A stretch of DNA of 63,448 nt, counting the filler, from Candidatus Woesearchaeota archaeon (GTDB lineage Archaea; Nanobdellota; Nanobdellia; Woesearchaeales; CG1-02-33-12): assembly GCA_018399355.1 (NCBI GenBank). It is 10 parts of 10 records of this genome, joined end to end, with 100 filler letters (N's around TTAATTAATTAA, not from the genome) between each part and the next. Parts side by side here need not be neighbours in the genome. Positions count along the whole stretch, not along the records: positions 8,592 to 12,460 come from JAGYOA010000059.1; 9 more parts are not named here. One strand, 5' to 3'. The position numbers are program-made. Shown here in pieces: positions 9,001-12,000 of the stretch. Numbering within the stretch: position 1 is the stretch's first letter; the number at the start of each line of letters is the position of its first letter.

Positions 9001-12000
9001 ATTGCATCTTATATTACCTTTGTATTAGGATTATTATTCTGGACAATAGGCCTTGTTACTGGAATAGATTTTGGAGTAATAGTAGGAATTACAGTTGTAT
9101 CCTCAGTTATATTGTTTTTGAAAGATAAAAATTAGAGTGTATCCAATATATACATGCTTTTTTAAATATTAATTTCCTTATTTTTTCATACAAATGGCCT
9201 TAGGCCATATAAATATATAATTTAAAAGGAGGTTAAATATTAAAGTGAAATTCGGCAGACAAGATAAAGGAATTGCAGGATTAACCATTTTGTTATCTCT
9301 TGTAACAATGTTGTTTGTAATTGGACTTCTTGTGATGGTCTTTGCTCTTATGGGTGGAGAATTACAAGATGCAACTACAGACGCAACAGCAGAAGATGTT
9401 ATCAATGATACCACTACAAGTATTTCAGGTGTAACTGATTGGTTTGAAATCTTCCTTGTAATCGGTGCTATGGTTGTATTAGTTCTATTGGTGGTTATAA
9501 TTATATCAGCAATAAGAGGATCAGGACTAATTGCAAGTGGAAGTGCATAAAAAGGCCGAATTAATCTCTTTTGAACACAAAATGAGATTTAAAAATAAAA
9601 ACAACGGAGTTGCAGGATTAACCATTTTGTTATCTCTTGTAACAATGTTGTTTGTTATAGGCCTTTTAGTGATGATTTTCTCTCTAATGGGAGGAGAATT
9701 ACGAAGTGCAACTTTTGATGACACAACTGTTACAGTTACCAATGAGACAAATATCTTTGTCAATACAACTGGAGATACATTATCTGGTGCATCTGCTTTA
9801 AATGCAGGTAGTTTTGTTATAACAGCAGTTTGGGATGAAGATAGTGGTGCTTATAATGTTACAGTACCAACAGCAAATGTAAGTGTTTCAAGTGCTGGAG
9901 TTGTTACAAACGGAACAGCAACAACATATGATGATGTAAGTTTGAGTTATACATATCATTATGATGCAGAAAACACAGCAACAGAAGTAATGAATGACAC
10001 AACTGCAGGAGTATCTGGTGTAACAGACTGGTTTGAGATTTTCTTGGTAATTGGTGCTATGGTCGTTTTGGTCTTATTAGTAGTAATAATAATAAGTGCT
10101 ATTAGGGGATCAGGACTAATTGCAGGAGGATCGGCATAAAAGTATGCATAAAACCTTAATTTTTTCTTTATAGGCCTTAAATGGCCTATTTCTTCTTTTT
10201 TTTCCGACGATAGATTTTATTATATTCAAATTTGCATTTTAAAGCGATTTGAGAAGTTTTTTTAACCTTTAAGGTGTAATTACCCATAAAAGTTTAGGAA
10301 TTTTTTATATCCAAAGGTTTATATAGTAGTTATACATCAATTATACATGGCAAACAGAACAACAATTAATATTGATAAGGCAATTAGAGAAGAATTGAAT
10401 AGGTGTAAGAAATATAAAAGAGAAACTTATGATGAAATTCTGGAAACCTTAATAAAAGAGAGAAAAAGGAGGAGATCAAAGATAGGATTAAAAAATTAAG
10501 ATGGTTAGTGAAAAAAGATTAAAAGAGTTGGATAGTAATATTTTAAAGAGTATGGGTTGGAATGCAAATGAAACTCCACAAGAGAGAAAAGAAATTCTTA
10601 AAAAATGGGATAAGATGGATGGATCATCATCTTTCCATGATGCTATAAAAACAATGATCAGAGAAAAATCCAAAAAAAATTACAAATTAGGATGTCCGAA
10701 CTCTTATAGTGGAGAACATGCTTTTGAAACATTTGGATTGCCAAAAGGAAAAATGAGATGTGTTCATTGTGGTGTAATTAAATCTATGAAAAAAGCAAGA
10801 TGAAAAGGAGGTAAAAAATAATGGGAAGAACAAATTTAGATCAGAAGAGAAGATCAAAACAACCATGGGAAAGAGGAAGAGGTGCAAGAAAGATAGGTAA
10901 TCCTCGTTATAAACCAGTTCGTAGAAGAGATAAAAATGATGTTTTGAGAAAACTCTATGTTTTGAGGAAAAGATAAAATGGTGAATAAACATTTATGGAA
11001 TTGGTTAGACGAAATAGAAGGAAAAAAGAAAGGAACTTCTCTTGAAAATTTAAAAAAAGAGATGAAAAGACAAGAATATGACTTAGAAAAAAAAAGAGAG
11101 AAAGCACTAAAAAGAAACATTAAAAGAAGAAAGGGAAAATACACAACTAAAAGGGATCAGGAATTAATGTTTGGATATTAAAATGGGTAAAATTTCAAAA
11201 AAAGAAATCCAGAGATATATTGATACAGGATGGATTTTTGAAAGGAGACCAAACGAATACATTAGTTTAGATACAGGAGAAGTAATCAAAACAAAAGAAG
11301 AAATTAAAAGGATTATTAAAAATTACAAAAAAGGTTTAAAAAAATATTAAAATGGGAAAATTTGATGTAGAAAAAATTAAGAATTTTACATGTGGAGAAG
11401 TTAAGGCATGGACAGATCAGATTAAAGCAGATCAGAATATTTCTAAATTATTAAAGGAACAAAAAGAAAAGGAAAAAAGAGAGAAAATTAAAAATGAAAT
11501 ACTAAAGGAGGTTTTTAAATAAAAAGAGAAAAAGGAGGTGAAAATGGTAAAATATGTTATAACTGCAACAAAGAATGGAAAAAGAATGGTTGGTGATACT
11601 TCTTTTAGGAAAAAGGAGAATGCAAAACAAGCAATTAAAAAGTTGATAAAAGATAAGAAATATAAATATCCAAAAATAGTAAAAGTTACAAAAGAAAGTA
11701 TTGATAGAATAAATAAAACCTATAATAAAAAGGGGGGGAGAAGAAAATGAATGAAATTGATAAACTGGAAGATGAATTAAAATATCTACAAAATAGAAGG
11801 AAAAAGAAAGAGAAAGAAAAATATCTTAAGAGAAAAATAGGTCAAGAAAAGTTTAATCAGAGTTTTTTAGGGAAGGTGGCCAATACTATTGGAAGAGTGT
11901 CAGAAAATTCTAAAAAGAGAAAAAAACCCACTAAAAACACAAAATCTGTGCAAGATCTTATAAGAGATTTGCCTCAATAAAATTATTTATTCCCTCAAAT

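Follow-up and report, generated by a model that had tools for sequence, protein, structure and literature searches.

Tandem helix-hairpin proteins with class III leaders in a family of circular, likely spindle-type archaeal viruses carrying a candidate A24 prepilin peptidase

The Fuselloviridae (SSV1, ASV1, SSV19) encode tandem short and loop-extended hairpin proteins, an ATPase of family phrog_5484, an integrase adjoining the ATPase, and an adhesin of about 1200 aa. The VP1 cut (marked ↓) lies at a K-G↓E or R-A↓E site; ASV1 VP1 has K-G↓E, and the 11-residue leader of SSV19 ends R-R-A↓E. The essential deleted residues 61–65 of SSV1 VP1 are K-L-T-K-G (primers, Table 2, PMC5748691), and the E66Q and E66A mutants are still infectious (PMC5748691). 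SSV1 encodes no recognisable protease, and the protease maturing its VP1 was unknown in 2017 (PMC5748691). His1 (Halspiviridae) has a VP21 of hairpin layout and the ATPase ORF16; its genome is linear and encodes a protein-primed polymerase and a single capsid protein, and the annotated ORF21 lacks a leader. According to 10.1101/2025.02.15.638363, the nanohaloarchaeal spindle-shaped viruses DNSV-1 and DNSV-2 and the Wyrdviridae have genomes of 21–22 kb, an AAA+ ATPase, two paralogous hairpin major capsid proteins, a tyrosine integrase and a large adhesin. FlaK, PibD and EppA (MEROPS A24, PF01478; PDB 3s0x) have two aspartate motifs, a six-helix membrane fold and K/R-G/A substrates.

The window, meaning the whole stretch of DNA analysed, was 63,448 nt of a Candidatus Woesearchaeota archaeon (GCA_018399355.1, bin G000). 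It consisted of 10 joined parts, and positions count along the stretch. The hairpin pair under study was on the part at 8,592–12,460 (JAGYOA010000059.1). The features were as follows.

8592..8795, + strand: conserved 139-aa membrane protein (cluster 3), 3' end only, truncated by the contig start (cluster comparison)
8827..9135, + strand: conserved 102-aa three-helix membrane protein (cluster 1), immediately 5' of the hairpin pair (66 loci or contigs)
9245..9550, + strand: short hairpin paralog (101 aa, start codon GTG), probable major capsid protein (ORF, ESM Atlas)
9582..10139, + strand: long hairpin paralog, 185 aa, ATG at 9582 (ORF, homologs, model)
9717..9968, + strand: Ig-like beta insert, residues 46–129, in the hairpin loop of the long paralog (model and structure matches)
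10347..10499, + strand: conserved 50-aa small DNA-binding-type protein (cluster 2; DUF7557-like in one relative; cluster comparison)
11747..11980, + strand: conserved 77-aa basic protein (cluster 6; cluster comparison)
60160..62025, + strand: second virus, contig C62, C-terminal part of a secreted adhesin of ~1200 aa (cluster 4; LamG domain in relatives)
62026..62808, + strand: second virus, C62, membrane proteins of cluster 3 (62026–62445) and cluster 1 (62500–62808)
62944..63448, + strand: second virus, C62, short hairpin (62944–63252, leader D-R-G) and long hairpin from 63284, truncated by the contig end
52284..52787, + strand: contig C59, distant cluster 7 member with K-K-G leader, possible distant hairpin paralog (cluster 7 versus hairpin profile, HHalign 80%)
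2529..3506, + strand: contig C53 (stretch 1–4414), ATPase of a more distant relative, best PHROG match the SSV1 B251/His1 ORF16 family
130..822 and 822..1415: also C53 (part of 1–4414), matches to genes of distant relatives
C47:667–1089 of bin G000 (contig coordinates): viral A24 prepilin peptidase of this bin

The ORFs at 9245–9550 and 9582–10139 were tandem paralogs, with ends identical at 90 of 105 and 114 of 150 bases. The short paralog consisted of two long hydrophobic helices joined by a short loop with one N-x-T sequon. The long paralog started at ATG 9582, not TTG 9531, and had six N-x-S/T sequons. In its model (pLDDT 82.8), helices 10–42 and 132–176 flanked a beta domain at residues 46–129, which matched Ig-like domains of phage virions (9eui_Q, Z 8.0, rmsd 3.1 over 81; 8hqo, Z 7.1, rmsd 2.4 over 66). 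On this model, the insert is predicted to be exposed outside the cell and the virion. The preliminary description had proposed two tandem hairpin paralogs, one with an Ig-like domain inserted; both points were borne out, and C62 held a second pair. As it had also reported, the hairpins gave nothing above threshold in Pfam or PHROG, and the nearest named ESM Atlas clusters were fusellovirus VP1/VP3 (0.85) and His1 (0.82), which serve as leads only. PDB sequences gave nothing above threshold, and annotated phage records gave no match. The top BFVD match, A0A5Q2W4Q0 (E 1.5e-4), has no name; its assignment to SSV19 was dropped, as the SSV19 record has no 187-aa gene.

The hairpin pair lay on a fragment of a family of circular elements of 21–31 kb. 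Four complete close genomes were found as IMG/VR records with terminal repeats (4/4 circular, 20.8–31.3 kb, same gene order), and IMG/VR classes them as complete viruses. The hairpins had 593 homologs, and among the matches listed 120 of 120 were on contigs of 35 kb or less; the earlier counts (450 homologs, 280 clusters, 111 metagenome loci, and 26 of 29 for the leader motif) were not exactly reproduced. By a wider count, the family had 1157 representatives at E ≤ 0.001. Clusters 4, 14, 16, 19 and 21 each occurred three times in the bin on separate contigs, which indicated at least three related elements. This agreed with the three or more viruses proposed earlier on about 15 contigs, but the hairpin pair had two copies, not three, and C53, C59, C68 and C69 were only distant relatives. 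The two hairpin proteins probably form the coat of archaeal viruses that make up a family with circular genomes of 21–31 kb.

Only one other bin, a Thermoplasmatales, had been thought to hold such elements. The wider profile corrected this, with relatives in five more bins (G068, G812, G769, G847 and G433). Weak profile matches were also seen in G297 and in sets of seven and three, and a match in G905 was rejected as a chromosomal false positive. Relatives occurred in bins of the order or class of G000, and the class of the Thermoplasmatales bin also had them (2 of 197 genomes); therefore, bin membership does not name the host. As before, none of the 10 tRNAs found in G000 gave an att match, the bin contigs read contained no host junction, and no provirus of the element was found. 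One RNA run (share 0.06) gave contigs over 9257–9477 as several variants and one contig over 9459–9722 without differences; this coverage was not taken as expression because the library may contain DNA.

Both the Walker-A ATPase and the tyrosine integrase of the preliminary description were present. For 14 of 15 family ATPases the top PHROG match was phrog_5484 (E 1.6e-11 to 6e-3), and one had no match. This PHROG contains SSV1 B251 (5e-101) and His1 ORF16 (3e-62). Each complete genome had one ATPase, and this protein is the best link of the family to spindle viruses. The integrase was of the XerC/D type, about 280 aa, with R, H-x-L-R and LGH..Y motifs; this integrase type and the folded Ig-like insert distinguish the family from the Fuselloviridae. 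Common to both are the tandem short and loop-extended hairpins, the ATPase family, an integrase gene adjoining that of the ATPase, and an adhesin of about 1200 aa. In its described make-up, the module as a whole is that of the DNSVs and the Wyrdviridae, with replication genes unrecognisable in either case; the DNSV adhesin has a glycoside hydrolase domain, whereas that of the family has LamG (10.1101/2025.02.15.638363). Among 117 ORFs of the four complete genomes, no terminase, portal or HK97 capsid was found at E ≤ 0.001, no fusellovirus PHROG other than 5484 was matched, and one weak tail-chaperone match was seen (E 3e-4). When 27 cluster profiles were compared with SSV1, ASV1, His1 and part of SMF1 for the Fuselloviridae core genes (B277, C166, A154, B129, VP4), only the ATPase and marginal matches were obtained.

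No homology of the capsid or core membrane genes to those of the Fuselloviridae was detected. PF06281 and PF25665 matched none of the four complete genomes. HHalign of the hairpins with fusellovirus VP1/VP3 gave 0.8–8.7%, lower than the host controls and than a reversed alignment (42.7%), in a weak test that gave 12% for fusellovirus against His1 itself. HHalign and profile searches against the capsids of SSV1, ASV1, SMF1, SSV19 and His1 gave none above controls. ASV1 VP3 was the best non-family match among 1686 ORFs, but at E 0.001. A whole-model search for structural kinship was set aside, as its lists were filled by generic helical hairpins with no spindle-virus capsid among them. The hairpin architecture expected of a spindle-virus capsid protein was present. 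Genome size, circularity, the hairpin pair, the B251/ORF16-family ATPase, the LamG adhesin, the integrase and the lack of tailed-virus head genes support the tailless, spindle-type assignment, but capsid homology to VP1/VP3 or His1 VP21 did not rise above controls.

That no capsid homology to spindle viruses was detected also bears on particle shape. The same maturation could serve a pleomorphic particle or a filamentous one like that of inoviruses or APBV1, and the ATPases had weak Zot-family matches (E 0.042; 2e-4 in a distant relative), while one distant short hairpin matched an inovirus-type major coat family (E 9e-4). However, the B251/ORF16 family ranked above Zot, the genomes are 21–31 kb with D5-type primases in some, the hairpins, like VP1 and VP21, consist of two helices and a short loop, and the nearest named ESM clusters are those of spindle viruses. 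A non-spindle particle is considered distinctly unlikely.

The short paralog began with a 9-residue basic leader ending D-K-G, with the predicted cut between 9271 and 9272. The leader of the long paralog at 9582 ended N-N-G, where the family consensus is D-K/R-G; Asn at −2 occurred in 9 of 120 close long-paralog homologs. In these 120, G was at −1 in 119, K/R at −2 in 97 and D at −3 in 112, and V-A-G followed the cut. K/R was at −2 in 73 of 75 short paralogs. The divergent set comprised 145 representatives, and 126 were scorable after 19 without an intact start were left out. A K/R-G/A site preceded the first helix in 111 of the 126 (shuffled sequences: mean 13.9, maximum 24); Ala (4) was the only other residue at −1, V, Q, T or I stood at +1, and the median leader was 10 residues. 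A third membrane protein, cluster 7, had the motif in 21 of 27 members. Host ORFs showed it in 31 of 922. A class III leader on the hairpin proteins of the family is thus supported at the sequence level, as had been claimed for these capsid proteins, with the exception that the long paralog of this locus has N-N-G instead of K/R-G. The family has leaders on both paralogs while fusellovirus VP3 has none, and the leader of SSV1 VP1 is long, unlike the ~10 residues of the family. Prepilin, peptidase and signal peptide are not mentioned in the main text of the DNSV paper (10.1101/2025.02.15.638363).

A 140-aa A24 gene was present in 4 of 4 complete close genomes and in all 12 loci long enough to reach from the hairpins to cluster 14. 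D20, G72, D75 and K77 were invariant in 73 sequences, so both catalytic aspartates were kept (D-x-K..P and G-x-G/A-D motifs). Of 20 members, 18 matched Pfam Peptidase_A24 at E ≤ 0.01, with a best E of 1.7e-7; the member in this bin scored 24.8 bits, just below the Pfam cut-off of 26.5. ESM Atlas placed the viral protein at 0.94 to A24 clusters. The top match of its model (pLDDT 91) among 48,161 chains was FlaK (3s0x_B, Z 9.5, rmsd 3.2 over 129; next 6.5), although a Z of 9.5 is attainable by chance among helical bundles and Foldseek ranked FlaK 17th (E 5.6). Its profile matched neither PDB sequences nor SSV1. Compared with FlaK, PibD and EppA, the viral enzyme has 140 aa, lacks the soluble insert that the host enzyme (285 aa) has, shows G-x-A-D for G-x-G-D in most members, and is encoded in a virus-like genome with hairpin substrates. 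The viral A24 likely trims the leaders of the hairpin proteins.

The preliminary description had assigned this maturation to the host prepilin peptidase and made no mention of a viral one. Under that reading, the viral A24 of a spindle-type virus would have another role, for example cutting only cluster 7 or miscutting host pilins against superinfection. Host A24 genes were found in G000 (on the bin's own chromosome, C9), G068 and G405. The viral gene was 1.8–8.1 kb downstream of the hairpins in close relatives, outside the structural block and not adjacent to the hairpin genes, and in this bin it was on a different contig (C47) from the hairpin pair. It was absent from two complete distant relatives (G068 C37 and G433 C15), and distant relatives keep K-K-G/A↓Q leaders like those of the host's own pilin-type proteins. 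These relatives would need the host's enzyme, and for them the host route remains likely. EppA is a dedicated enzyme in Methanococcus. The close family, however, encodes its own A24 with intact aspartates in all genomes and loci above, and its own leader style (D at −3, V-A-G after the cut) fits a dedicated enzyme. The host enzyme need not be invoked for the close family, and host maturation of its capsid is unlikely.

Class III leaders with an A24 gene are also the hallmark of pilus systems. The element could be a non-viral circular mobile element, in which the hairpins would be pilins building a filament for DNA transfer or adhesion (VirB2/CedA1/TedC-like or type IV-like) and the A24 an ordinary prepilin peptidase. 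Thaumarchaeal ICEs carry prepilin peptidases and pilins (PMC6563490), and conjugative pilins are also helix hairpins (PMC9905601). The PDB sequence search with the hairpins gave weak matches to Geobacter and Thermus pilins (E 0.06 and 0.32). Nevertheless, the sole ATPase of the complete genomes belongs to the spindle-virus family, and the larger ORFs included no recognisable VirB4/VirD4, PilB/PilC or relaxase (Pfam on selected ORFs, several conserved genes having no family). The second hydrophobic helix at the C-terminus of the long paralog differs from the type IV pilin layout of a single N-terminal helix and globular head, and Glu at +5, a type IV pilin trait, was present in 18 of 111 leader-bearing homologs. 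CedA1 is not cleaved, and the enzyme that cleaves TedC is signal peptidase I (PMC9905601); IMG/VR lists the four records as complete viruses. A mobile element with pilins is very improbable.

It is with moderate confidence that the hairpins are regarded as capsid proteins of tailless, likely spindle-type archaeal viruses, with class III leaders cut by the viruses' own candidate A24. Both paralogs and cluster 7 have a basic leader of ~10 residues ending K/R-G/A ahead of a hydrophobic helix, and the A24 gene lies downstream in close relatives. The precursors would be membrane hairpins whose leader and C-terminus lie in the cytoplasm, and the peptidase would strip the leader to give assembly-competent subunits, as in pilin maturation. 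By analogy with fuselloviruses, assembly of these around the DNA during virion extrusion would be the task of the B251-type ATPase together with small membrane proteins. Judged by topology, the long paralog may carry its Ig-like insert, glycosylated and fast-evolving, on the outside of the virion, and the tip adhesin may be the LamG protein. The tyrosine integrase would permit lysogeny. Where distant relatives have no viral A24, the host peptidase would take its place, as PibD may do for SSV1 VP1.

A theme of viral A24 with a leader-bearing hairpin coat was not found in the literature searched, whose reach did not extend to Wu et al. 2024 and Wang et al. 2022 (Cell). The SSV1 VP1 genetics, with K-L-T-K-G essential and E66Q/E66A tolerated, fit a class III peptidase, and the residues before the cut make PibD a testable candidate for its protease. 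An S. islandicus pibD mutant exists (PMC7217056). A wider reading is offered tentatively, at slightly under an even chance: spindle-type virions would be matured like pili by class III peptidases across the group. This widespread family would have captured a minimal A24 for its own D-K-G leaders, with A24-less relatives and fuselloviruses using the host enzyme; PibD would be the protease of SSV1 VP1, a target of searches since the 1980s, and one capsid paralog would be a surface scaffold for Ig-like domains. Hairpins with class III leaders and an own A24 in one virus family give genomic support for a class III peptidase cutting SSV1 VP1. If true, spindle-shaped virion assembly would be tied to pilin biology, and a viral branch would be added to the prepilin peptidases. 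Current capsid profiles would also have missed a large virus family, which may overlap the families of Wu et al. 2024.

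Contig C55, part of the 918-kb Woesearchaeota bin, is one of the contigs strung together in the window with N linkers between them. It carries two tandem helix-hairpin ORFs, putative capsid genes.

Hairpin pairs and putative viral peptidase gene
8592–12460: contig C55, home of the hairpin pair
9245–9550: short hairpin ORF, 101 aa, GTG start
9582–10139: long hairpin ORF, 185 aa, directly after the short one
62944–63448: second hairpin pair, on contig C62
C47:667–1089 (outside the window): cluster 5, 140-aa membrane protein

The short and long ORFs had both ends in common, and the length gap was an insert of about 84 residues. 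The structure of the long paralog was modelled with AlphaFold from a 120-sequence alignment (pLDDT 82.8). Helices 10–42 and 132–176 flanked a beta domain (46–129), which aligned to phage virion Ig-like domains (9eui_Q: Z 8.0, rmsd 3.1 over 81; 8hqo: Z 7.1, rmsd 2.4 over 66). These middling scores indicate only a common fold for the modelled domain. The Asn of five N-x-S/T sequon positions was retained in 102–111 of 120 long-paralog homologs, which fits a loop lying outside. ORFs and model agreed with the preliminary description of tandem paralogs, one with an Ig-like insert. A fold search matched the long paralog over its full length to BFVD A0A5Q2W4Q0 (187 aa, unnamed; E 1.5e-4, 19% identity); this entry possibly belongs to the wider family. 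Relatives of 269–647 aa carried far larger inserts (P0127, P0141, P0191, P0201, P0257, and L118 7720–9663), suggesting that the hairpin is a general display scaffold.

The −1 residue, immediately ahead of the first helix, was Gly in 119/120 close long paralogs, with Lys/Arg at −2 in 97/120 and Asp at −3 in 112/120; 73 of 75 short paralogs had Lys/Arg at −2. Of 145 divergent representatives, 19 without an intact start were left out. K/R-G/A stood at the expected place in 111 of the 126 scored, against a mean of 13.9 and a maximum of 24 in 200 shuffles. Ala was the only alternative to Gly at −1, and +1 was mostly Val or Gln. These residues match the pattern of archaeal class III sites known from PibD/FlaK, and the bin's own pilin-type proteins had K/R-G/A sites with Gln at +1. 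The conserved leader described earlier held for the family, but not for the long paralog of the window, which has Asn at −2. Glu at +5 was not conserved (18/111 divergent homologs with the motif). Cluster 7, which by sequence may be a distant paralog of the hairpins (HHalign 80%), had the same leader in 21/27 members.

Maturation had been tentatively attributed to the host prepilin peptidase. Chromosomal A24 genes were found in this bin and in G068 and G405, two other bins with relatives, but a viral A24, cluster 5, had been overlooked; it was carried by 4/4 complete genomes. Pfam Peptidase_A24 matched 18/20 cluster 5 members at E ≤ 0.01, with the copy of this bin slightly below cut-off. D20, P27, G72, D75, and K77 were invariant in 73 sequences, and ESM Atlas grouped the cluster with A24 clusters (0.94). 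The best of 48,161 chains for its model (pLDDT 91) was FlaK (Z 9.5, rmsd 3.2 over 129; next Z 6.5); in Foldseek, FlaK was only 17th (E 5.6). The gene was present in 12/12 loci spanning hairpins to cluster 14, 1.8–8.1 kb from the hairpins. Its tie to contig C55 is via relatives only. The A24 gene in G003 was followed some 1.7 kb downstream by a third copy of the hairpin second half, 51 aa long (L097 5557–5712).

Distant relatives in other bins retained K-K-G/A leaders, and viral A24 was absent from the stretches examined, including two complete circles: G068 C37 (27.8 kb) and G433 C15 (21.5-kb unit assembled twice). The latter had a single hairpin without K/R at −2. In G847, which shares its family with this bin, four tandem paralogs, three short and one long (L154, C106, 1802–3224), had leaders K-K-G, S-K-G, R-K-G, and K-K-A.

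According to PMC5748691, SSV1 VP1 is cleaved by an unknown protease, deletion of residues 61–65 is lethal to the virus, and E66Q and E66A viruses are infectious with abnormal particles. Residues 61–65 are K-L-T-K-G, as read from that paper's primers and the genome record. ASV1 VP1 had K-G before E at the cut site, and SSV19 VP1 had an 11-residue basic leader ending in R-R-A before E. We infer from these sequences that the sites offer the features a class III peptidase requires. His1 ORF21 had no such leader. SSV9 is not produced by a pibD mutant of S. islandicus, which is, however, also devoid of the pili required for infection (PMC7217056), so this result is no decisive evidence on VP1 cleavage.

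The long paralog had 593 homologs; representatives at 50% identity and E ≤ 0.001 numbered 1157. From 286 metagenome stretches, 80 loci were kept, together with 6 IMG/VR records, four of them complete by terminal repeats (20.8, 25.8, 27.0, and 31.3 kb). Gene order was fixed: a 1100–1360-aa protein without family; clusters 10, 9, 8, and 7; a secreted protein of about 1200 aa with a LamG domain; clusters 3 and 1; and the hairpin pair. After a variable region came, also in fixed order, clusters 14, 18, and 25, integrase, and ATPase. Five gene families were each present three times in the bin on separate contigs, which bears out the claim of at least three related elements. C53, C59, C68, and C69, previously counted as parts of them, matched only distantly; 1–4414 (C53) and 49292–52837 (C59) are fragments of more distant relatives. 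On C59, an ORF of 834 aa that matched no Pfam family lies beside the cluster 7 gene.

The conserved 1100–1360-aa protein (L093 15085–19164 and cluster 11), the family's largest gene class, had no membrane segments and no Pfam or PHROG match. Replication modules were swapped: a D5-type primase-helicase in some loci and a winged-helix 310–335-aa protein in others (clusters 26, 15); in G001 and G004 neither could be recognised. The structural blocks of G001 and G003 were interspersed with many free-standing HNH-type endonuclease genes (e.g., L093 7160–8338, L098 10160–10585). Five loci had a nucleotidyltransferase-like gene (cluster 39, L042 2319–2870; weak Poly_A_pol_cat match, E 2.7e-5) inserted among their structural genes. 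ARAGORN found a tRNA-Ala(TGC)-like gene within the G002 viral genome, away from the integrase (L096 3699–3771).

No att site or host junction was found in the bin contigs examined. Tetranucleotide difference from the chromosome was 0.34–0.72 for viral contigs against 0.11–0.22 for 10-kb host pieces, with small host contigs reaching 0.51; composition alone thus cannot account for the binning of the viral contigs. An 86-base stretch was 77% alike between C42 5934–6017, a chromosomal contig end, and C66 2342–2424. C66 carries a third tyrosine recombinase and may be host or another element. A Thermoplasmatales bin had been named as the only other carrier; wider profiles added G068, G847, G812, G769, and G433 to G405, all on stand-alone contigs. 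Any match occurred in 3/401 genomes of G068's class, 12/401 of the order of G847, G812, and G769 (eight weak), and 5/197 of the Thermoplasmatales bin's class, that of G405 and G433 (three weak).

In the four complete genomes, a screen of 117 ORFs of at least 85 aa (one ORF incomplete) gave no terminase, portal, or HK97 capsid match at E ≤ 0.001. The best match of 14/15 family ATPases was phrog_5484 (E 1.6e-11 to 6e-3), whose members include SSV1 B251 and His1 ORF16; this is the firmest tie to spindle-shaped viruses at the sequence level. Nanohaloarchaeal spindle viruses of 21–22 kb are described with an ATPase, two hairpin MCPs, a tyrosine integrase, and a large adhesin, and Wyrdviridae likewise with two MCPs (10.1101/2025.02.15.638363). 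The spindle-type assignment was supported by the ATPase, while homology of the hairpins to known capsids did not emerge: Pfam known-capsid profiles matched in none of the four complete genomes, HHalign of hairpins to known capsids was no better than controls, and the ESM scores to spindle-virus capsids, 0.85 and 0.82, are leads only.

Literature searches, with Wang et al. 2022 and Wu et al. 2024 outside their coverage, found neither a description of this family nor a link between spindle-virus capsids and prepilin peptidase; Wu et al. 2024 may already name the family. Core genes set it outside Fuselloviridae in profile comparison, and it most likely functions like them. On balance, we lean slightly towards the hairpins being capsids of tailless, likely spindle-type viruses, with leaders likely cut by their own A24 peptidase.
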